Shown here in pieces: positions 4,854 to 34,981 of a stretch of 64,000 nucleotides of DNA. This stretch comes from Escherichia coli. Its GTDB lineage: Bacteria > Pseudomonadota > Gammaproteobacteria > Enterobacterales > Enterobacteriaceae. The stretch's first letter is position 1. Every line of letters starts with the position of its first letter. A program made the position numbers and the translations under genes. The notes below the pieces were generated by a model, which was given only the letters and a program-made list of their open reading frames with translations, did not search any database and was not told where the DNA came from. The DNA lies in the NCBI RefSeq assembly GCF_024502345.1, contig NZ_JALDNN010000001.1, one strand, 5' to 3'.

Positions 4854-5777
4854 ATGGAAAAAAATAGTCTGTTTAGTCAGCGCATCCGTTTGCGCCACCT
4901 TCATACATTCGTAGCTGTCGCACAACAAGGAACTTTGGGGCGCGCGGCTGAAACCCTTAATTTGAGTCAACCTGCGCTCTCTAAGACATTGAATGAACTG
5001 GAGCAACTGACGGGCGCTCGCTTGTTTGAGCGTGGTCGTCAGGGGGCGCAACTTACCTTACCCGGCGAACAATTTTTAACGCATGCAGTCAGAGTTCTTG
5101 ACGCCATCAACACTGCTGGACAGTCGCTTAATCGTAAAGAAGGTCCTAATAATGATGTCGTCAGGGTTGGTGCACTACCTACTGCGGCACTGGGGATATT
5201 ACCTTCGGTTATAGGTCAGTTTCATCAGCAACAAAAAGAGACGACCTTGCAAGTTGCGACAATGAGTAACCCTATGATTCTGGCGGGTTTGAAAACCGGG
5301 GAAATCGATATCGGCATTGGTCGGATGTCAGATCCTGAACTGATGACCGGGCTTAATTACGAACTGCTGTTTCTTGAATCGCTGAAGCTGGTTGTCCGCC
5401 CTAATCACCCGCTACTTCAGGAGAACGTAACGCTAAGCCGGGTGCTGGAATGGCCGGTCGTTGTATCACCAGAAGGCACTGCGCCACGCCAGCATTCAGA
5501 TGCATTAGTGCAGAGCCAGGGCTGTAAAATTCCTTCGGGTTGTATCGAAACGCTATCTGCTTCGCTATCCCGTCAACTTACGGTTGAATACGATTACGTG
5601 TGGTTTGTCCCTTCTGGCGCTGTAAAAGACGACCTGCGTCATGCCACGCTGGTGGCCCTGCCTGTTCCGGGACATGGTGCAGGCGAACCGATTGGAATAC
5701 TAACCCGCGTAGATGCGACGTTCTCTTCTGGTTGCCAGTTGATGATTAACGCTATTCGAAAATCAATGCCGTTCTGA
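4854..5777 (+). CDS. ydcI: LysR-family transcriptional regulator YdcI
   Basis: 307 aa from the internal Met (MEKNSLFSQRIRLRHLHTFVAVAQQGTLGRAAE), N-terminal HTH; divergent from ydcJ. Confidence 0.8.
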   Translation: MEKNSLFSQRIRLRHLHTFVAVAQQGTLGRAAETLNLSQPALSKTLNELEQLTGARLFERGRQGAQLTLPGEQFLTHAVRVLDAINTAGQSLNRKEGPNNDVVRVGALPTAALGILPSVIGQFHQQQKETTLQVATMSNPMILAGLKTGEIDIGIGRMSDPELMTGLNYELLFLESLKLVVRPNHPLLQENVTLSRVLEWPVVVSPEGTAPRQHSDALVQSQGCKIPSGCIETLSASLSRQLTVEYDYVWFVPSGAVKDDLRHATLVALPVPGHGAGEPIGILTRVDATFSSGCQLMINAIRKSMPF

Positions 5778-23197: not shown

Positions 23198-23425
23198 CGC
23201 ACCCTGCCCTGTAATAAAACGGATTGAGAAAAATCAGTATAGAAACGAAAAGAGATAAATAATGCGAAGGCGTAAACAAGATTACTGGATGAGTTGCTCT
23301 ATTGTCCTGAAAAACACAAAACAAAACGCGTCAAGTACCGCATCCGGCAATAAAAAACCGCAACCTGTATAGCGTTGCGGTTTAGGTATCACATGCTAAA
23401 AATTAGAATGTTCAGTATCTGGACG

Positions 23426-24016
23426 TTACTGTTTCGGTCGCAGATTCTCATCAAATACCAGACGTTTCCTGTTCGGTTCAACTTCCCGCAATGGCTCAAC
23501 TTGATGCAACGTCTGCTTACAACGAGTCACCAGCACCTGATACTCATGCGTACCCTGCTTTTTCCATGCCAGCTCCTGCTCACTGAGTTCACGAATCGCT
23601 TTCGCCGGGCTGCCGACAATCAGGTAATTGGCAGGCATTTCTGCTTTGGCTTTCACAAATGCGGATGCGCCAACAATGCTGTTCTCGCCAATCACCGCGC
23701 CGTCCATCACTACCGCGTTCATTCCCACTAATGCATTGCGGCGGATAATGCAACCATGAAGGATAGCGCTATGACCAATATGCCCATCTTCTTCCACGAC
23801 AGTATCCTGTTCGGGAAAACCGTGCATAACGCAATTATCCTGAATGTTCGCGCCATCTTTCACTACGATACGACCAAAATCGCCACGCAGATTGGCATTT
23901 GGCCCAACGTAAACGCCCTTGCCGAGAATAACATCGCCGATCAATACCGCTGTCGGATGGACAAAACTCTCTTCTGGCACAACCGGAGTCAGACCATCTA
24001 TCTGGTAAATTGGCAT
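23426..24016 (-). CDS. paaY: Hexapeptide-repeat thioesterase PaaY, apparently intact
   Basis: 196 aa, [34 protein letters not shown]... Confidence 0.85.
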
Positions 24017-24555
24017 AACGCCTCCTGTTCAATATTCAAACCGCCAAAACGTTGAAAATACAGGCTTCCCGGCGCAGGCAGTTCACCGACCGAGGTTTCA
24101 CCTTTTTCACTAACGAACGCTAAAGCAGCAGGCGCTACGCGCTGATAAATGTTGATACACAGCTGACGCGCCGTATGCCCTGCCCAGTGCGCCGGAAGCA
24201 ACTCCTCTGGCAACAATGGGTCTTTAAGGACGACACGGCGATAAAAATGGATCAGTAAAAGCTGAATATGAAATGCACGCTCCGGGGTTAACTCGTCTGC
24301 TGCCTCTTTTAACAGCGGCACCAGCGGGCGGAATGACTGAATAAAGGTTTCGTACATGGCATTTTGTTCAGTTAAATGCCAGCACTCTTCCACTCTGGCA
24401 CGCAGTGCTGCACGAGAAAGCGCCAGTGGTATTTGCGCTTCAAAACAAATCACGTTATCCGCCAGAAGGGCATTATTTAGCGCATTACGTGCGGCGGGAC
24501 GGTTAAGGGTCAGCAACAATACTTGTTGCTGACGGCTGACGATCAGTTCGCTCAT
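23998..24555 (-). pseudogene. Deletion-fusion remnant: first ~31 codons of paaF joined in frame to the C-terminal ~150 codons of paaX
   Basis: Translation MSELIVSRQQQVLLLTLNRPAARNALNNALL (PaaF N-terminus) continues directly into ADNVICFEAQIPLALSRAALRARVEECWHL... (PaaX C-terminal half). Confidence 0.6.
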
Positions 24556-25193
24556 GCCATCCCCTTCGCGTCAAAGTCAACCACCACATCGCTGGTCAGC
24601 GGCAGTGCCTGGCAACTCAACACATAGCCTGCGGCCAGTTCATCCGGTTCCAGACTGTAATTGGTTTCCATCGCCACTTTGCCACGCAGCACTTTGCATT
24701 TGCAGGTCGCACAGACGCCGCCTTTGCAGGCATAGGGCAGATCAGCCCCCTGGCGCAATGCCGCATCGAGAATGCTTTCATCGTCGGCATTAAGCACGAT
24801 TTCCCGATCCCGCCCATCCTGACGTACAGTCACTTTTTGTCCGTCACTTTGCACGTTAACGCTACGTTTGACGCGCGTGCCAGGCGTATTAAACCGCTCC
24901 AGATGAATGGTTTTATCTGGCATTCCCAGTGCTTTTAAGGCGGCTTCCGTCTCATCCATCATCGCCGCCGGACCACAAATAAATGCCTCATCATAAAGAC
25001 GAAAATTAATGAGCGAGGCCCCAAGTGACTGTAATTTTTCACCGTCAATACGCCCGTGAAGCAGATCGCTGTCGAGGGTTTCCTGACTGAAAATGCACAA
25101 CAACTGTAAACGCTGAGGATATTTGTCTTTCAGGTCTGCCAGTGCCTGGCGAAACATCATGCTCTGGCTGGTACGGTTACCGTAGATCAGGGT
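24552..25193 (-). pseudogene. paaE: paaE remnant, C-terminal ~200 codons (NAD-binding and 2Fe-2S ferredoxin domains), N-terminus deleted
   Basis: MMFRQALADLKDKYPQRLQLL...CKGGVCATCKCKV... matches the PaaE C-terminus; PaaE-like sequence ([11 protein letters not shown]) extends upstream to about 25193 and then stops. Confidence 0.6.
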
Positions 25194-25956
25194 GATGCCC
25201 GCACAAAACCAGCGACATGCTCTGCAACTGGCTTGTGCAGGCGGCGGTAGCCTTGCGGGAACGCTGGTGACGGCTGATCCGCAAATTGCGCGTCAGTTTA
25301 TTGCCGACGCGGCACGTACGCATGGGCGAATTCAGATCCTCAATGAAGAATCGGCAAAAGAATCCACCGGGCATGGCTCCCCACTGCCACAACTGTTACA
25401 TGGTGGGCCTGGTCGCGCAGGAGGCGGTGAAGAATTAGGTGGTTTACGAGCGGTGAAACATTACATGCAGCGAACCGCTGTTCAGGGTAGTCCGACGATG
25501 CTTGCCGCTATCAGTAAACAGTGGGTGCGCGGTGCGAAAGTCGAAGAAGATCGTATTCATCCGTTCCGCAAATATTTTGAGGAGCTGCAACCAGGCGACA
25601 GCCTGTTGACTCCCCGCCGCACAATGACAGAGGCCGATATTGTTAACTTTGCTTGCCTCAGCGGCGATCATTTCTATGCACATATGGATAAAATTGCTGC
25701 TGCCGAATCTATTTTTGGTGAGCGTGTGGTACATGGATATTTTGTGCTTTCTGCGGCTGCGGGTCTGTTTGTCGATGCCGGTGTCGGTCCGGTCATAGCT
25801 AACTACGGGCTGGAAAACTTGCGTTTTATCGAACCCGTAAAACCAGGCGATACCATCCAGGTGCGTCTCACCTGTAAGCGCAAGACGCTGAAAAAACAGC
25901 GTAGCGCAGAAGAAAAACCAACAGGTGTGGTGGAATGGGCGGTATGGGCACGCTAA
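25192..25956 (+). pseudogene. paaZ: paaZ remnant: end of the aldehyde-dehydrogenase domain plus the MaoC hotdog domain, without N-terminus or native C-terminal end
   Basis: [35 protein letters not shown]... [48 protein letters not shown]... corresponds to PaaZ from about residue 430. Confidence 0.6.
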
Positions 25957-26963
25957 CCTCACCAATTGCTCGTGGTAAAGATGCCCCGTCTAACGCAGTG
26001 CTCCTTAATGAAACCATCGCCGACTACACTGGCGTGCCGATGGAGATCCCTCGCGCTATCGCGGTATTTGAACGTTATGCCGGGCCGGAGTATAAGCATC
26101 AGGAAATGGGCCAGCCCAACGTCAGTACCGAACGCCGGGAGTTAGTGGTGCGCTGGATCAGTACAGTGGGTAACTATGACTACATTTTTGACTGGATCTT
26201 CCATGAAAACGGCACTATTGGCATTGATGCCGGTGCTACGGGCATCGAAGCGGTGAAAGGTGTTAAAGCGAAAACCATGCACGATGAGACGGCGAAAGAT
26301 GACACGCGCTACGGCACGCTTATCGATCACAATATCGTGGGTACTACACACCAACATATTTATAATTTCCGCCTCGATCTGGATGTAGATGGCGAGAATA
26401 ACAGCCTGGTGGCGATGGACCCAGTGGTAAAACCGAATACTGCCGGTGGCCCACGCACCAGTACCATGCAAGTTAATCAGTACAACATCGGCAATGAACA
26501 GGATGCCGCGCAGAAGTTTGATCCGGGCACGATTCGTCTGTTGAGTAACCCGAACAAAGAGAACCGCATGGGCAATCCAGTTTCCTATCAAATTATTCCT
26601 TATGCAGGTGGTACTCACCCGGTAGCAAAAGGTGCCCAGTTCGCGCCGGACGTGTGGATCTATCATCGTTTAAGCTTTATGGACAAGCAGCTTTGGGTAA
26701 CGCGTTATCATCCTGGCGAGCGTTTCCCGGAAGGCAAATATCCGAACCGTTCTACTCATGACACCGGTCTTGGACAATACAGTAAAGATAACGAGTCGCT
26801 GGACAACACCGACGCCGTTGTCTGGATGACCACCGGCACCACACATGTGGCCCGCGCCGAAGAGTGGCCGATTATGCCGACCGAATGGGTACATACTCTG
26901 CTTAAACCATGGAACTTCTTTGACGAAACGCCAACGCTAGGGGCGCTGAAGAAAGATAAGTGA
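25935..26963 (+). pseudogene. tynA: tynA remnant: C-terminal ~340 codons of the periplasmic copper/topaquinone amine oxidase, lacking signal peptide and N-terminal domains
   Basis: Contains the cofactor-precursor motif region TVGNYDYIFDW and the C-terminal catalytic-domain sequence; overlaps the paaZ remnant out of frame; convergent with feaB as in K-12. Confidence 0.65.
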
Positions 26964-26973
26964 TTGTTTCAGA

Positions 26974-27002
26974 CAAAAAAACGGCACCAGGTGCCGTTTT
27001 TT
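26974..27002. terminator. Bidirectional hairpin with A-run and T-run between the tynA remnant and feaB
   Basis: AAAAAAACGGCACC-AGGTGCCGTTTTTT. Confidence 0.55.
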
Positions 27003-27020
27003 ACTTATGAGCGAACCAGA

Positions 27021-28520
27021 TTAATACCGTACACACACCGACTTAGTTTCACACCAACCGTCCAGCCAGTCGGGGCCAAAATCACGGCCCGTTCCTGACT
27101 GCTTCATCCCACCAAACGGTAAGTTAGCGTCAATTAAGGTATGGCTGTTTACCCACACCGTCCCTGCCTGTAAGCGATCGCTATATTCCAGAGCCTGGGA
27201 GAGATTTTGCGTCCAGACACTGGCAGTTAAGCCATATTCCGTGTCGTTTGCCAGTTGTAACGCCTCTTCTCCATCCGCTACTCGCACCAGGTTTACCACC
27301 GGACCAAACACCTCTTCACGAGTTAAGCGCAATTTAGCATCGGGATTTACCACCAGCGTTGGCGCAACATAATACCCCTCTCCGGCTGGTCCATTCGACC
27401 CGCGAATCAGCTCTGCTTGCTGTGCCTGCGCATCGTCGAGGAATGAACACACTTTGTCGCAGTGCGCACGAGAAACCAAAGGGTTAATCTGTGCAACAGG
27501 TGACATCCCCGGTCCCACTTGCAACGATTTTACCGCCTGCTCAAATCCACTAACCAGCGTGTCAAACAACGGCGCTTCAATATAAATTCGCGAACTGGCG
27601 GCGCATACTTGCCCTTGATTCAGGAAGCTTCCGGTCATCAAGCCTTCAATAACCCATTGCGGATCAGCATCTTTTAATACAATTGCCGGGTTTTTACCGC
27701 CCAGTTCCAGCGTTACACGCGTTAAGTGATCAGCAGCAGTTCTGGCAATACCTTTTCCCGTCGCGGTTGAACCGGTAAAACTGATTTTCGCAACATGAGG
27801 ATGTGACGTCAGGGCCGCGCCGCATACAGCACCTGACCCGGTGACCACATTAAAAACGCCATCAGGGATACCAGCCTCGCTGGCCAGTTCCGCCACGCGC
27901 AACATCGTCAGTGGCGTGGTTTCCGAAGGCTTAATCACGATTGAACAGCCTGCTGCCAGTGCTGGCATCACCTTCCACATACCAATCATCAACGGAAAGT
28001 TCCATGGCACAATTCCCGCCACTACGCCAACCGGCTCTTTACGCGTCCAGGCCTGATAACGCGCCCCCTGGGGTAAGGGAATCGACAAGTCCAGCGTTTT
28101 ACCCGCGATTTTGGTCGTTAACCCGGCGGTATAACGCATCCAGTTCAGCGTACAGCCCACTTCAAAAGCACGGGAAATGGCAATTGACTTGCCTTGCTCC
28201 AGGGTTTCCAGTTGCGCCAGCTCCTCACTGTGCTGTTCCACCAGATCGGCAAAACGTAGCAGAATACGTTCACGCTCTGCGGGTAATCGCCCGGCCCAGC
28301 GACGCGAGACAAAGGCCCGCCAGGCAGACATGACTGCGTTATCTACATCCGCTTCGTTGGCATCAGCAGTAGACGCAATTTCTTGCCCGGTGGCCGGATC
28401 AAAGATCGCCAATCGTTTTTCACTTTGTGCGGGGCCTGGACGACCATCAATATAAAGACCGTGTTGACGATCGAGAAACTGTTGGACCTGGCTTAATACT
28501 GCTACATGCGGCTCTGTCAT
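27021..28520 (-). CDS. feaB: Phenylacetaldehyde dehydrogenase
   Basis: 499 aa from the second Met, [26 protein letters not shown]..., aldehyde dehydrogenase family. Confidence 0.9.
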
Positions 28521-28586
28521 CACTTTTCCTTATTATTTACCCAGTGTGATTTCAGTGTACGCAGCGACAAGAAAAGTCACTTTTTT

Positions 28587-28640
28587 CGCTGTGACATTCG
28601 CTTTGTCAGCTGTGACAAGCTCCGCAAATCGTGACAATAA
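28587..28640. promoter_or_regulatory. Three TGACA direct repeats at ~20-bp spacing upstream of feaB; candidate FeaR operator
   Basis: TGACA at 28591, 28612 and 28631; the middle copy fits TGACA-N8-AAA; located 70 to 115 bp upstream of the feaB start. Confidence 0.35.
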
Positions 28641-28755
28641 CCGCTTATGTCTCTATGCCTGACAAGACTTATTTCCTATAGTCAGGCTCATTAGCATCGT
28701 TTACTGCAACACAAATGCAACAATAAAAATACATTTCACAGAGCGAAAACGTGCC

Positions 28756-29661
28756 ATGAACCCCGCAGTGGATAATGAGTTTCAGCAATGGCTTTCCCAA
28801 ATCAATCAGGTATGCGGAAATTTTACCGGACACCTGCTGACTGAGCGTTACACGGGTGTACTGGATACGCATTTTGCCAAAGGACTAAAGCTGAGTACCG
28901 TGACAACCAGCGGGGTGAATTTATCCCGCACCTGGCAGGAAGTAAAAGGCAGCGACGATGCCTGGTTTTACACCGTTTTTCAGCTTAGTGGTCAGGCAAT
29001 AATGGAGCAGGATGAGCGTCAGGTGCAGATTGGCGCTGGCGATATTACGTTACTCGATGCCTCACGCCCCTGTTCGCTTTACTGGCAGGAGTCTTCTAAA
29101 CAGATTTCATTACTTTTGCCACGCACTCTGCTGGAACAATATTTTCCCCATCAAAAACCTGTCTGCGCAGAAAGACTGGACGCTGACTTACCCATGGTGC
29201 AACTCAGTCATCGCCTGTTACAGGAGAGCATGAATAATCCGGCACTTTCTGAAACAGAAAGTGAAGCTGCGCTACAGGCGATGGTGTGTCTGCTGCGCCC
29301 GGTACTTCATCAGCGGGAATCTGTTCAACCTCGTCGTGAACGTCAGTTTCAAAAAGTGGTTACGTTGATAGACGATAATATTCGCGAAGAGATATTACGC
29401 CCGGAGTGGATAGCCGGAGAGACAGGTATGTCAGTACGTAGTTTGTACCGAATGTTTGCCGATAAAGGTTTGGTGGTCGCGCAATATATTCGTAACCGTC
29501 GTCTCGATTTTTGTGCAGATGCGATTCGCCATGCCGCAGATGATGAAAAACTGGCAGGCATCGGCTTTCATTGGGTATTTTCTGACCAGAGTCATTTTTC
29601 AACGGTATTTAAGCAACGCTTTGGGATGACGCCAGGCGAGTATCGACGTAAATTCCGCTAA
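28756..29661 (+). CDS. feaR: AraC-family activator of the tynA/feaB pathway
   Basis: 301 aa with a C-terminal AraC-type HTH; divergent from feaB. Confidence 0.9.
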   Translation: MNPAVDNEFQQWLSQINQVCGNFTGHLLTERYTGVLDTHFAKGLKLSTVTTSGVNLSRTWQEVKGSDDAWFYTVFQLSGQAIMEQDERQVQIGAGDITLLDASRPCSLYWQESSKQISLLLPRTLLEQYFPHQKPVCAERLDADLPMVQLSHRLLQESMNNPALSETESEAALQAMVCLLRPVLHQRESVQPRRERQFQKVVTLIDDNIREEILRPEWIAGETGMSVRSLYRMFADKGLVVAQYIRNRRLDFCADAIRHAADDEKLAGIGFHWVFSDQSHFSTVFKQRFGMTPGEYRRKFR

Positions 29662-29698
29662 CTAATTGGCGTTGTGTGTACTGCAACGCCAATTAGTT
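29660..29698. terminator. 15-bp perfect inverted repeat directly after the feaR stop
   Basis: AACTAATTGGCGTTG-tgtgtactg-CAACGCCAATTAGTT. Confidence 0.45.
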
Positions 29699-29832
29699 AA
29701 AACAAATATTTGACTATGCATTTTTCAGGGCGAAAGGCAATTTGACAGGAGTTTTTGAATATTCACCTTGTTTCAGGAAAATAGATCAATCGCTTTCTCC
29801 TGTAGCGTTATCCCGATATTGCGGTTTTGCTA

Positions 29833-30159
29833 TTAAAATTTTCGCACCCATTTACCGTTTATCCCTTGTACATATTCCCCCGGTTTGGCCCGAGCTACGA
29901 GCTTTTGCCCGGCGAGTTTCGCGATATCATCTACAGACACATTATTTTGCTTTGCCAGTTGTTGGTAACTCGCTTTACGTTCGGCATTAATGTCGGTTAC
30001 TAATTTCTCTGTTTCAGCATCCGTTTTCAGCGCAACCAGATAACCATAAAATGTTTCCCCGACCCGCCCCTGCGTTCTGGCTTCATCCAGAGTCAATGCC
30101 ATTACATTGCTGCTTACCAGCCCAACAAGAAACGCACAAAGAAGTAATGTTTTCTTCAT
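29833..30159 (-). CDS. ydbL: DUF1318 periplasmic protein YdbL
   Basis: 108 aa from the internal Met with signal peptide MKKTLLLCAFLVGLVSSNVMA. Confidence 0.75.
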   Translation of the reverse strand: MKKTLLLCAFLVGLVSSNVMALTLDEARTQGRVGETFYGYLVALKTDAETEKLVTDINAERKASYQQLAKQNNVSVDDIAKLAGQKLVARAKPGEYVQGINGKWVRKF

Positions 30160-30166
30160 CATCGCC

Positions 30167-30352
30167 TCAGAAAAGATCGCTACGAGTTTCAAGCAGCTCT
30201 TCGACATCTTTGTCTGCCTTGATGATGATCTCATGCTCAATTTTAACGTTCATATTGATAGTGATCGGTTCCTTGGGCGCAGCGACTTCAATACGCGGCG
30301 TACAGGCAGCCAGCATAAAAGATGACGTCAACGCAGCCAGTAAAATTTTCAT
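30167..30352 (-). CDS. ynbE: Small lipoprotein YnbE
   Basis: 61 aa, MKILLAALTSSFMLAACTP lipobox; its start overlaps the ydbH stop. Confidence 0.75.
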   Translation of the reverse strand: MKILLAALTSSFMLAACTPRIEVAAPKEPITINMNVKIEHEIIIKADKDVEELLETRSDLF

Positions 30353-32988
30353 TGTTTTTCCTCACACTCTTTTCCTTGCGGACAGTCATTTCCCGGCAGA
30401 CGTGCGTTCTGCTCCAACCATGCCTGGAGATTATCGCCAAAGCGTAAACTGCGCCACAGCGTAAAAATATTCTCTTCATGATGGTAATTAAGGTTTACCG
30501 TACCGCTTTTACCATCAACGCGACTGGTACCTGTAATGTTGGCCTGCATGGTTAATAAACCGAGATTATCTAAATTAATATTTGTCGATGAACGGCTAAT
30601 TTCCATATAGCGCAACCAGTTAATTGCTGAACCCGCAGTCATATTGTCTTTCACCACCGCATCTGCGGTGTCTTTATCCAGCCGCAAGGTCATTGGCCCG
30701 CTATTTGCCAGCCAACCATCTTTCACTATCCATTTTTCGTTGTTTAGCCATAACGGCAATGCACCACTAAATGCCCCGGACATGGCGAATTGTTTCGGAT
30801 TGACGGCGCTAACCAGTTCGCTGGATGAGAGATTATTCAGCCGCAACAGCGCCGGGTCATGTTGCGGCATACGTAATTGTTTCATCAGTACGTTACCGCC
30901 TAACACATCGACGCTAACATCAGTCAACAGCAAGGGTTCTTCTTCAGTCCACGGATAACGCCCTTGCAAATCAGCCGTAATATTTTTCGCTGTCACCAGA
31001 TTAATCACTTCGGCAATTCGCAACGTAACGGGGCCGCGAGTCCCCAGATGCCAGGCTCCATCGGCAAAACGGAAAGGCAGGACAAAATCGACACCGTTAA
31101 CCTGATTATCTGGCATCCAGGCACTACCGCCTTTCAACACGCCGTGCCCTCCCGCGCGGAATCCTTGTTCAGGCGCAGCAGAAAATGCAACCTGAGCATA
31201 CAGTTCACCATCGCGTAAGTTCATCTTCCAGTCGGGTGGCACCAGCGGCTGGAATACAGTCAGTGATTGTTTTGGCCACCAGGCGTTACCGCGCAGACGA
31301 ATACCGTCCCAGCGACCATTTACCCGAACCGGGCCAATCTCACCAGCATGTAAATCGCCTTTAAAGAGGAAATACGTCGGATCGCGCCCATCGACGCTAA
31401 ATTTTAAGGTTGATGGCGGTAACACACTGCCGCCAGTGAACAGCGTTTGCCCGGCGTCCAGTGACAGCGCGCCGCTGAAGGAGGGATGCTGTGCGTCACG
31501 TACCCAGACGACGGGCTTGTCGAGAATTAATCGCGGCTTTTCTACCGTCATCGTACCGTATTGTAACTGGTCGAAACCGGTGGAGAGGTCGGTCAGCGTA
31601 ATCGTGCTGTCATGCCATTCACCTTTTCCTGCGACATCCCAGGTGGCATTCATCGGTGTAAAACTGCCTTTTCCCCAGTAGCGCCACTGCCAGCGGCCCG
31701 CGTCAGGGAGAAAATCATTCGCCAGCCCATCCATATGCAGCACGAAATCGCCCAGTTCATTTTCATGCGCCTGCAAAATGGCCTGCAAACGTCCGTCAAC
31801 ACCACGTTGGGTGACTTTTACACCCGCTAAAGGCCAGCGGATTTCATCGATGTCCAGCGAATCGATGACTCTTCCCTTTGAACGAAGTAACGCGCCTGGC
31901 TCAAAGGCCAGCGTTGGGTCAGTCAGACTTCCACTTAGCTGCGCGGGTAAGCGGGCATATAAAATGAGGTCCGCCTGTTTCGCTTCACCGGTCAGCTGCA
32001 GAGGCAGCTGGCTGTTATCCATGCTTAATTTTCCTGGGCCAAAATTTAGCACCGCGTTGCCTTTACCCGCTTGCCCCTGGGTCAGCACACTCAGTCGTCC
32101 GCTGATCAGAGCGTTCTCAAGCCCTGCCTGCCAGTTGTCGACTTTGACACCCAGTCGGCCACTCAAAGGAAAACCTGCATACGGCCAACTCCAGCGACCA
32201 TCGCTTACGGTCAATTGTTGACGAGTAATTTGCCACGGCAAATCGAGCAACGGATCGCCGTTATCCCGTGCCAGCACAATCAATTGCCCGCTATTTTCCT
32301 GCCAGTCCAGCTCTGCATCCACCAGTGACGGTTCCTGCGGCAAGTTTAACGTCGCAGTAGCATGCCCACTTACAGGAAGTCCATCCGGCACGAGCGGCAT
32401 AGTAAATTCCCCCACCAGTTTAACCGGCGGCTGATTTTCAAACGCGACGACATCCAGTTCGCTGACTGTAAGTTGTTGCCCTTTCAGCTGGCCTTGAAAT
32501 TTAACTTTTTCGCCCTGATAACGCAGTTGCTGGATATTAGAGGTTAATGCGAGAGAGAGTTTTCCCTGCCATTCCTGCCAGGGAGAAAAAATCAGTTTAT
32601 CGATATTGATCCAGGTATTAGGCAGCATGGACTGCCACTGCGCGAGGGTTTTTGGAGCAGCTGGCGATTGCTCCGTCTGCGGCAATTTCGCCAGACAAGC
32701 AGAATCAAGTTCTACCATGCCGACGTTCAATAACCAGCGGCTGGGATGTGAAAGGCTGGCGTTGGTGATATGCGCAAGCTGACAATCTCCCACCAGATAA
32801 CGGAGATCGGGAATGATTAAACCTTTACGCGTAATGCGTGGGCTTTCATCTAATGCAATACGTGTCCCGAGCGGTAGCCAGATGCCCGCCAGCGTGGGAA
32901 CCCACAGCCCGAGCGTCATCAGCAGCGTCAACGGCACAAGAATAATCAGTAATAACAGCGCGAGAACGGCTTTATATTTACCCAGCAT
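30349..32988 (-). CDS. ydbH: Large AsmA-like / DUF748 membrane-anchored protein YdbH
   Basis: 879 aa with an N-terminal transmembrane anchor; first gene of the apparent ydbH-ynbE-ydbL operon. Confidence 0.85.
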   Translation of the reverse strand: MLGKYKAVLALLLLIILVPLTLLMTLGLWVPTLAGIWLPLGTRIALDESPRITRKGLIIPDLRYLVGDCQLAHITNASLSHPSRWLLNVGMVELDSACLAKLPQTEQSPAAPKTLAQWQSMLPNTWINIDKLIFSPWQEWQGKLSLALTSNIQQLRYQGEKVKFQGQLKGQQLTVSELDVVAFENQPPVKLVGEFTMPLVPDGLPVSGHATATLNLPQEPSLVDAELDWQENSGQLIVLARDNGDPLLDLPWQITRQQLTVSDGRWSWPYAGFPLSGRLGVKVDNWQAGLENALISGRLSVLTQGQAGKGNAVLNFGPGKLSMDNSQLPLQLTGEAKQADLILYARLPAQLSGSLTDPTLAFEPGALLRSKGRVIDSLDIDEIRWPLAGVKVTQRGVDGRLQAILQAHENELGDFVLHMDGLANDFLPDAGRWQWRYWGKGSFTPMNATWDVAGKGEWHDSTITLTDLSTGFDQLQYGTMTVEKPRLILDKPVVWVRDAQHPSFSGALSLDAGQTLFTGGSVLPPSTLKFSVDGRDPTYFLFKGDLHAGEIGPVRVNGRWDGIRLRGNAWWPKQSLTVFQPLVPPDWKMNLRDGELYAQVAFSAAPEQGFRAGGHGVLKGGSAWMPDNQVNGVDFVLPFRFADGAWHLGTRGPVTLRIAEVINLVTAKNITADLQGRYPWTEEEPLLLTDVSVDVLGGNVLMKQLRMPQHDPALLRLNNLSSSELVSAVNPKQFAMSGAFSGALPLWLNNEKWIVKDGWLANSGPMTLRLDKDTADAVVKDNMTAGSAINWLRYMEISRSSTNINLDNLGLLTMQANITGTSRVDGKSGTVNLNYHHEENIFTLWRSLRFGDNLQAWLEQNARLPGNDCPQGKECEEKQ

Positions 32989-33195
32989 GGGTAGTTAATA
33001 TCCTGATTTAGCGAAAAATTAAGCATTCAATACGGGTATTGTGGCATGTTTAACCGTTCAGTTGAAGGTTGCGCCTACACTAAGCATAGTTGTTGATGAA
33101 TTTTTCAATATCGCCATAGCTTTCAATTATATTTGATATTTTGTAAAATATTTTTAGTAGCTTAAATGTGATTCAACATCACTGGAGAAAGTCTT

Positions 33196-34185
33196 ATGAA
33201 ACTCGCCGTTTATAGCACAAAACAGTACGACAAGAAGTACCTGCAACAGGTGAACGAGTCCTTTGGCTTTGAGCTGGAATTTTTTGACTTTCTGCTGACG
33301 GAAAAAACCGCTAAAACTGCCAATGGCTGCGAAGCGGTATGTATTTTCGTAAACGATGACGGCAGCCGCCCGGTGCTGGAAGAGCTGAAAAAGCACGGCG
33401 TTAAATATATCGCCCTGCGCTGTGCCGGTTTCAATAACGTCGACCTTGACGCGGCAAAAGAACTGGGGCTGAAAGTAGTCCGTGTTCCAGCCTATGATCC
33501 AGAGGCCGTTGCTGAACACGCCATCGGTATGATGATGACGCTGAACCGCCGTATTCACCGCGCGTATCAGCGTACCCGTGACGCTAACTTCTCTCTGGAA
33601 GGTCTGACCGGCTTTACTATGTATGGCAAAACGGCAGGCGTTATCGGTACCGGTAAAATCGGTGTGGCGATGCTGCGCATTCTGAAAGGTTTTGGTATGC
33701 GTCTGCTGGCGTTCGATCCGTATCCAAGTGCAGCGGCGCTGGAACTCGGTGTGGAGTATGTCGATCTGCCAACCCTGTTCTCTGAATCAGACGTTATCTC
33801 TCTGCACTGCCCGCTGACACCGGAAAACTACCATCTGTTGAACGAAGCCGCCTTCGATCAGATGAAAAATGGCGTGATGATCGTCAATACCAGTCGCGGT
33901 GCATTGATTGATTCTCAGGCAGCAATTGAAGCGCTGAAAAATCAGAAAATTGGTTCGTTGGGTATGGACGTGTATGAGAACGAACGCGATCTGTTCTTTG
34001 AAGATAAATCCAACGACGTGATTCAGGATGACGTATTCCGTCGCCTGTCTGCCTGCCACAACGTGCTGTTTACCGGGCACCAGGCATTCCTGACAGCAGA
34101 AGCTCTGACCAGTATTTCTCAGACTACGCTGCAAAACTTAAGCAATCTGGAAAAAGGTGAAACCTGCCCGAACGAACTGGTTTAA
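33196..34185 (+). CDS. ldhA: Fermentative D-lactate dehydrogenase (NAD-dependent 2-hydroxyacid dehydrogenase)
   Basis: 329 aa, MKLAVYSTKQYDKKYLQQVNESFGFELEFFDF... Confidence 0.95.
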   Translation: MKLAVYSTKQYDKKYLQQVNESFGFELEFFDFLLTEKTAKTANGCEAVCIFVNDDGSRPVLEELKKHGVKYIALRCAGFNNVDLDAAKELGLKVVRVPAYDPEAVAEHAIGMMMTLNRRIHRAYQRTRDANFSLEGLTGFTMYGKTAGVIGTGKIGVAMLRILKGFGMRLLAFDPYPSAAALELGVEYVDLPTLFSESDVISLHCPLTPENYHLLNEAAFDQMKNGVMIVNTSRGALIDSQAAIEALKNQKIGSLGMDVYENERDLFFEDKSNDVIQDDVFRRLSACHNVLFTGHQAFLTAEALTSISQTTLQNLSNLEKGETCPNELV

Positions 34186-34295
34186 TCTTGCCGCTCCCCT
34201 GCAATCCAGGGGAGCTGATTCAGATAATCCCCAATGACCTTTCATTCTCTATTCTTAAAATAGTCCTGAGTCAGAAACTGTAATTGAGAACCACA

Positions 34296-34718
34296 ATGAA
34301 GAAACTAGCCGCGTTTGTTGCGCTAAGCCTGCTGATGGCGGGATGTGTAAGTAATGACAAAATTGCTGTTACGCCAGAACAGCTACAGCATCATCGCTTT
34401 GTGCTGGAAAGCGTAAACGGTAAGCCCGTGACCAGCGATAAAAATCCGCCAGAAATCAGCTTTGGTGAAAAAATGATGATTTCCGGCAGCATGTGTAACC
34501 GCTTTAGCGGTGAAGGCAAACTGTCTAATGGTGAACTGACAGCCAAAGGGCTGGCAATGACCCGTATGATGTGCGCTAACCCGCAGCTTAATGAACTCGA
34601 TAACACCATTAGCGAAATGCTGAAAGAAGGTGCACAAGTGGATCTGACCGCGAACCAGTTAACGCTGGCGACCGCGAAACAGACATTAACTTATAAGCTG
34701 GCGGATTTAATGAATTAA
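34296..34718 (+). CDS. hslJ: Heat-inducible lipoprotein HslJ (META domain)
   Basis: 140 aa from the internal Met, MKKLAAFVALSLLMAGC lipobox. Confidence 0.85.
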   Translation: MKKLAAFVALSLLMAGCVSNDKIAVTPEQLQHHRFVLESVNGKPVTSDKNPPEISFGEKMMISGSMCNRFSGEGKLSNGELTAKGLAMTRMMCANPQLNELDNTISEMLKEGAQVDLTANQLTLATAKQTLTYKLADLMN

Positions 34719-34981
34719 TAGCTGCCACAGCTCCCGGCGGCAAGTGACTGTTCGCTACAGCGTTTGCCGTTGGGTAATGCACACATCCCAATCGCCGTAC
34801 CATCCAGTTGACGGGCAACAGAAAGCGAACCGCCGATCATTGCACAATTTGCTTCTCCACTACTGGACATCGACGCTTTTAAACCTGGCGCTACGTGCGC
34901 CGCAGTCGCCTGCTGAACAGGTTCACTACTACACGCCGACAACAATAAAGCGGCACACCCTACCCAAAACGCTGCTCGCAT
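34715..34981 (-). CDS. ydbJ: DUF333 lipoprotein YdbJ
   Basis: 88 aa, MRAAFWVGCAALLLSAC lipobox; convergent with hslJ. Confidence 0.7.
   Translation of the reverse strand: MRAAFWVGCAALLLSACSSEPVQQATAAHVAPGLKASMSSSGEANCAMIGGSLSVARQLDGTAIGMCALPNGKRCSEQSLAAGSCGSY

Follow-up and report, generated by a model that had tools for sequence, protein, structure and literature searches.

The 235-bp region between the divergent genes feaB and feaR raises two questions in this Escherichia coli strain: whether a series of TGACA repeats upstream of feaB marks binding sites of the activator FeaR, and what such sites could still do beside a tynA gene of which only a fragment is left. FeaR activates both feaB and tynA (PMC4640556). 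The repeats were analysed within the window, i.e., the whole 64-kb stretch of DNA that contains the locus.

On the + strand, TGACA occurred at 28592-28596, 28613-28617 and 28632-28636 (spacing 21 and 19 bp). These positions lie upstream of feaB, 72-116 bp from its ATG (28520, - strand), and agree with what the sequence-only reading had described. Two further copies were close by, one on the + strand (28660-28664) and one inverted (28604-28608). Altogether, the pentamer was counted 105 times on both strands of the window, about once per 610 bp. Five copies within 73 bp, compared with about 0.12 expected, corresponded to a Poisson P of about 2e-7 for a single stretch of that length and about 2e-4 for the window as a whole.

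A candidate two-box FeaR operator upstream of feaB

The tynA and feaB promoters reportedly carry two copies of the FeaR site, TGNCA-N8-AAA (Zeng & Spiro 2013, J Bacteriol 195:5141). The K-12 feaB promoter is reportedly the sequence on which the site was defined. Because TGNCA is self-complementary save for its middle base, the core of a box also reads as TGNCA on the opposite strand, and strand and copy number must therefore be settled by repeat spacing and conservation. The pattern matched 11 times in the whole window, compared with 14.6 matches expected, and three of these matches fell within the TGACA cluster.

Two matches formed direct repeats of TGTCA-N8-AAA on the feaB (-) strand, 21 bp apart from start to start and 61-97 bp upstream of the feaB ATG, divergent from feaR. 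The first and the middle TGACA of the + strand were the reverse complements of the two cores. A repeat finder, which works independently of the pattern search, returned a 20-nt direct repeat with 80% identity and a spacing of 21 at 28577-28596 and 28598-28617. With a box matrix built only from the boxes of species other than E. coli, the two matches were the best sites in the 64-kb window (Table 1) and the next best site scored 13.6 bits. By estimate, fewer than 0.001 pairs of - strand TGNCA-N8-AAA matches 21 bp apart would be expected in the window by chance, and a relaxed two-box pattern occurred in it once, at the feaB promoter. With a probability that we put at about 90%, the first two pentamers are the cores, seen from the other strand, of an operator in the feaB promoter to which FeaR binds through two boxes. 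The sequence-only reading had taken the three pentamers as candidate FeaR sites; it named the right protein and the right promoter, but on the wrong strand and with three boxes rather than two.

The region around the boxes was close to invariant within the species. In the feaB-feaR intergenic region, two differences from K-12 were counted, and both lie toward feaR, well away from the boxes, which correspond to MG1655 1447422-1447458. A 74-nt stretch that includes the boxes was identical to K-12 and to 98% of the E. coli genomes that carry the locus: of 3288 complete E. coli genomes with the region, 3237 passed a threshold of 99% identity, which for 74 nt means an exact match. What has been established for K-12 at this promoter therefore holds here too.

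For comparison between species, a FeaR alignment scan with one genome per species yielded 80 loci from about 20 genera, and feaB was divergent from feaR in 69 of them. Conservation was counted over 68 non-E. coli feaB upstream regions from other Enterobacteriaceae species. Box spacing was always 21 bp in these species and the orientation was always toward feaB. Conservation of the pentamers in other feaB promoters, on which the sequence-only reading had made its proposal depend, was complete for the first two cores and was rarely seen for the third (Table 1).

The relaxed two-box pattern was also searched in 685 kb of fetched loci, where about 0.1 occurrences would be expected by chance. Outside the feaB upstream regions it occurred only in Hafnia and Serratia, where it separates feaR from tynA, and in Pseudomonas, where it lies between feaR and a dehydrogenase gene. 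The Hafnia and Serratia sites were TGTCA/TGGCA pairs (L082, L083, L087, ~4906-4970). Five Pseudomonas species carried TGGCA-N8-CAA-N5-TGGCA-N8-AAA next to feaR (L085-L092, ~5040-5330); there the downstream gene is a feaB-like aldehyde dehydrogenase gene. The occurrence of the two-box layout at several FeaR-linked genes ties the motif to FeaR and not to feaB alone, and extends it beyond the Enterobacteriaceae to Pseudomonas.

A FeaR operator of feaB is already known, reportedly since its description in 2013, and the copy in the window is identical to the K-12 copy. As a finding, the operator adds little new biology and is chiefly a worked check; the comparison over about 20 genera sharpens it to TGTCACAG-N5-AAAGCG, twice, at 21 bp.

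Table 1. Positions, strands and conservation of features at the feaB-feaR locus and of the neighbouring tynA remnant.
Feature	Position in window	Strand	Conservation	Remarks
Candidate distal FeaR box TGTCACAGCTGACAAA	28617->28602	-	full box kept in 52/68 other species	TGNCA-N8-AAA match; 25.8 bits, top score in window
Distal core TGTCACAG (includes TGTCA)			invariant in 68/68 other species	
Candidate proximal FeaR box TGTCACAGCGAAAAAA	28596->28581	-	full box kept in 67/68 other species	TGNCA-N8-AAA match; 25.4 bits, second-best in window
Proximal TGNCA			kept in 68/68 other species	
+ strand TGNCA-N8-AAA match TGACAAGCTCCGCAAA	28613-28628	+	kept in 41/68 species	-1.9 bits, rank 160 in window
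Third TGACA pentamer	28632-28636	+	kept as TGNCA in 7/68 other species	19 bp from middle pentamer; -14.8 bits
CRP-like element	28611-28626	both		+ strand TGTGAcaagctCCGCA, - strand TGCGG-N6-TCACA; overlaps distal box core
-10-like hexamer TACACT, putative feaB promoter	28559->28554	-	TAnACT kept in 63/68 other species	21 nt past end of proximal box
-10-like hexamer TATAGT, feaR side	28677-28682	+	TATAnT kept in 54/70 species	
feaB (phenylacetaldehyde dehydrogenase)	27021-28520	-		intact; collinear with annotated K-12 feaB
feaR (AraC-family activator)	28756-29661	+		full length; R26H, I136V and G274V relative to K-12
tynA remnant, 3' 1024 nt only	25940-26963	+		from BLAST against K-12 loci

Other readings of the repeats

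It is improbable that the three + strand pentamers are three FeaR sites of which the middle one is best. The pentamers do recur on that strand at 21 and 19 bp, the middle one fits TGNCA-N8-AAA as had been claimed, and a 14-nt repeat GTGACAAnnnnCCGC, found only in E. coli, joins the second and third pentamers at 19-bp spacing within 28612-28644. The + strand, however, points away from feaB, whereas boxes face the regulated gene upstream of feaB in 68 species and at all other two-box sites found. The + strand match points toward feaR, shares its pentamer with the distal box, scored poorly and had no partner 21 bp away on the + strand; it survives in as many species as it does because a conserved block next to the box supplies its AAA, and on these comparisons it is a by-product of the self-complementary core and that block. 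The third pentamer is probably not a FeaR box: a search with the TGNCA-N8-AAA pattern found no AAA arm on either strand, and its spacing is 19 bp and not 21. Together with the fourth pentamer, which was kept as TGNCA in 0/68 other species, it was ruled out as an additional FeaR box by score and conservation. Very improbable, too, is the reading of the TGTCA/TGACA repeats as half-sites of a PhoB pho box. Pho boxes are direct repeats of the TGTCA type and PhoB binds this intergenic region, with a ChIP-seq peak between feaR and feaB and a 3.4-fold increase of feaR in a phoB deletion (Table 1 of PMC10294691), but their half-sites have a period of 11 bp, compared with 21 bp here. The peak centre, at MG1655 position 1447326, maps to 28713 in the window, about 100-130 bp from the boxes in the direction of feaR. 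A PhoB matrix from the other 58 published ChIP-seq sites, by which the TGACA cluster was ruled out as PhoB boxes, gave at most 0.0 bits in 28581-28640, compared with 7.8 at 28705 and 5.8 at 28734. That a short word merely clustered by chance in an AT-rich intergenic region, or that the repeats belong to an RNA-level element, is barely conceivable. The FeaR pattern was indeed not enriched over the window as a whole, but five TGACA copies were found where a fraction of one was expected, the exact 21-bp pair lies in the one promoter expected to have it, and the boxes are invariant over about 20 genera. As to an RNA element, no Rfam match and no stable or unusual fold was found (z = +0.75).

A binding site for CRP at 28611-28626, instead of the FeaR box or besides it, would explain carbon-source control and is a doubtful but serious alternative. 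The element matches TGTGA-N6-TCACA at 8 of 10 positions with poor flanks, and its TCACA sits inside the distal FeaR box. Core matches of at least 8/10 were found in 66 of 70 species, with left halves TGCGG, TGCGA, TGTGT or TGCGT; TGCGA and TGTGT drift toward the consensus, and T1, G2 and G4 are kept. Four nucleotides upstream of the distal box lies the block (T/A)TTGCGG (to 28627 in the window), the TTGCGG of which is 90-100% conserved at feaB and missing from the tynA promoter. The centre of the element (28618.5) is at fixed distances from the -10-like hexamers on both sides, about -71.5 from the putative feaB start and about -70.5 from the putative feaR start. Zeng & Spiro are said to have proposed in their abstract that feaR is regulated by CRP, and feaB is reportedly induced under carbon and not nitrogen limitation; a CRP site at this position may already have been proposed by them. 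Against a CRP site stand the 21 core matches of 8/10 in the window that arise by chance alone, the overlap of the element with the TGTCA core of the distal box, and the proximal box, the 21-bp repeat and the two-box layout at tynA and in Pseudomonas, all of which it leaves unexplained. Given the overlap with the FeaR core and the 21 equally good matches, the CRP reading was left as a hypothesis, namely that CRP could bind the conserved TGYGN-N6-TCACA, halfway between the two divergent promoters of feaB and feaR. Because of the overlap, CRP and FeaR could not bind together, and would share or compete for the same DNA if the reading is true; part of the invariance of the distal box may then reflect another protein.

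Additionally, several elements were noted near the boxes and on the feaR side. A near-palindrome TGTCAcagcTGACA at 28604-28617 lies inside the distal box. The PhoB peak centre at 28713 falls on a conserved direct repeat, TGCAACAcaaaTGCAACA (28705-28722, 7.8 bits), which may be the PhoB site; the site assigned to PhoB by MEME in PMC10294691, TTTCACAGAGCGAAAACG (28734-28751), scored 5.8 bits, below TGCAACAcaaaTGCAACA. A FeaR-like box at the feaR start, TTTCACAGAGCGAAAA (28734-28749), came from a search of inverted repeats and was rejected at 1.8 bits and for lack of conservation; it coincides with the site assigned to PhoB in PMC10294691.

Loss of tynA and the FeaR G274V allele

Over 25940-34900, the window shared 98.9% identity with K-12 (DH1) and 99.6% with strain E2865. 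The feaB protein was the K-12 protein, encoded with five nucleotide differences, all of them silent. The reduction of tynA to a fragment, which the sequence-only reading had noticed, was borne out by the comparison with K-12: missing are the 3' end of paaZ and, from tynA, the promoter together with 1250 nt at the start of the gene. The remnant contains an open reading frame at 25935-26963 (342 aa), called a Cu_amine_oxid fragment in the identical locus L006.

Relative to K-12, three clean deletions had reduced the whole paa-tynA region (23425-26963) to a patchwork. Deletion 1 (about 6.4 kb) runs from the 5' end of paaX to paaF, deletion 2 (about 4.4 kb) from the 5' end of paaE to the 5' part of paaZ, and deletion 3 (about 1.6 kb) took the paaZ-tynA segment named above. 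Their junctions, at 24463-24464, 25193-25195 and 25940-25944, each showed an overlap of 2-5 bp and no insertion sequence. The exact three-deletion arrangement was found in no complete E. coli genome of the collection.

In this strain feaB has lost its regulon partner tynA. TynA is the amine oxidase that makes the aldehyde from phenylethylamine or tyramine. With TynA lost, any response of the operator would depend on an aldehyde of different origin and on a FeaR G274V protein that still binds DNA. The description of feaB as an orphaned target accordingly stands as far as the lost tynA and the intact feaB are concerned, with the FeaR substitution as a caveat. Of 5426 complete E. coli genomes, 3288 contained the feaB box region and 3171 the tynA promoter and 5' end, so that about 117 may likewise carry the feaB promoter without tynA, a figure that is a difference of totals and not a per-genome overlap. 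The orphaned state is probably uncommon but not unique. The feaB-feaR locus is itself accessory, and the whole of it was missing from about 39% of the complete E. coli genomes. Absence of tynA has been reported for O157:H7 and most UPEC isolates (PMC4640556).

FeaR was 99% identical to its K-12 counterpart, with the AraC_binding_2 and HTH_18 domains present. At codon 274 (29575-29577), GGA is changed to GTA and replaces a glycine of the DNA-binding domain that precedes the second helix-turn-helix. This glycine was invariant in 11 orthologs from other genera, was G in 127 of 129 homologs, and aligned with a conserved G of RamA, SoxS and the AraC-type structure 3oio. The substitution lowered the HTH_AraC profile score from 49.5 to 42.8 bits (-6.7). 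The 61 nt around the codon had no exact match in the 5426 complete E. coli genomes; the exact G274V protein was on record as E. coli in 19 contigs.

Contigs with the allele carried none (L009, L012), two (L007, L008) or three (L005, L006) of the paa-tynA deletions. Since the same allele occurs with 0, 2 or 3 deletions, the substitution probably arose before them. The same contigs suggest that tynA and paa decayed in steps once the substitution had arisen. Contig L010 was collinear with K-12, and its tynA was called as two pieces.

In this lineage, G274V could be a loss-of-function change that preceded the tynA and paa deletions, and this strain may have ceased to use the operator. If so, the catabolic pathway decayed regulator first and left behind an operator and a feaB gene that are intact but unused. 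Both proposals, a CRP site that overlaps the distal FeaR box and a loss of FeaR function by G274V before the stepwise deletions, are tentative and on the unlikely side. The FeaR G274V allele, the nested deletions and the CRP-like element could interest researchers who study pathway decay or FeaR biosensors.

Promoter layout and comparison with known activators

A consensus scan found no full sigma-70 promoter in 28450-28800 and no recognisable -35 element for feaB, as expected for an activator-dependent promoter. The distance between the -10-like hexamer of feaB and the distal box core was 56 nt in 69 of 70 sequences. We infer a feaB transcription start about 7 nt after this conserved hexamer. 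Counted from it, the distal box would span about -70 to -55 (centre about -62.5) and the proximal box about -49 to -34 (centre about -41.5). On the other side, TATAGT is likely a feaR promoter element; its distance to the distal box was 62 nt in 53 of 70 species, and it had no good -35 upstream.

With start, box positions, FeaR occupancy and mechanism all deduced from the layout, the arrangement suits a class II activator of the AraC type. A FeaR dimer loaded with aromatic aldehyde would occupy both direct repeats, and its promoter-proximal subunit would replace the -35 contact and recruit RNA polymerase. No looping or distal site was seen at the feaB operator, and none is known there. FeaR is activated by the aromatic aldehydes that TynA makes (PMC11542736), and on phenylethylamine a K-12 strain with tynA deleted showed a 40-fold drop in feaB (PMC4640556).

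Compared with K-12, the strain has tynA and its promoter deleted, most paa genes gone and FeaR G274V, whereas the operator itself is unchanged. The boxes of the tynA promoter are absent from the window. In K-12 they read TGGCAcacctgccAAA and, after N5, TGGCAggtgcaggCAA, 21 bp from start to start. Like the feaB boxes, they are two direct repeats that face the gene just upstream of a -10-like element; they differ in a TGGCA rather than TGTCA core, a CAA proximal arm, and missing CACAG and GCGAA flanks. The two promoters share only the short core TGNCA-N8-(A/C)AA. The matrix derived from feaB gave the K-12 tynA boxes no more than 5.0 bits, a weak score, and was therefore not used to claim regulon membership.

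Class II comparators from the AraC/XylS family include AraC at I1-I2 of araBAD, RhaS at rhaBAD, MelR at sites 2 and 2', and XylS at Pm. Half-sites in such promoters are about 17-20 bp long, and the one closer to the transcription start touches or overlaps the -35 position. The putative feaB operator resembles them in its two direct-repeat half-sites two helical turns apart and in a putative promoter that seems to lack a good -35 element. FeaR has the architecture of AraC/XylS-type activators, with an N-terminal domain for ligand binding and dimerisation and two C-terminal helix-turn-helix motifs, but differs in its own recognition sequence, its N-terminal domain of the AraC_binding_2 type and its aromatic aldehyde ligand.
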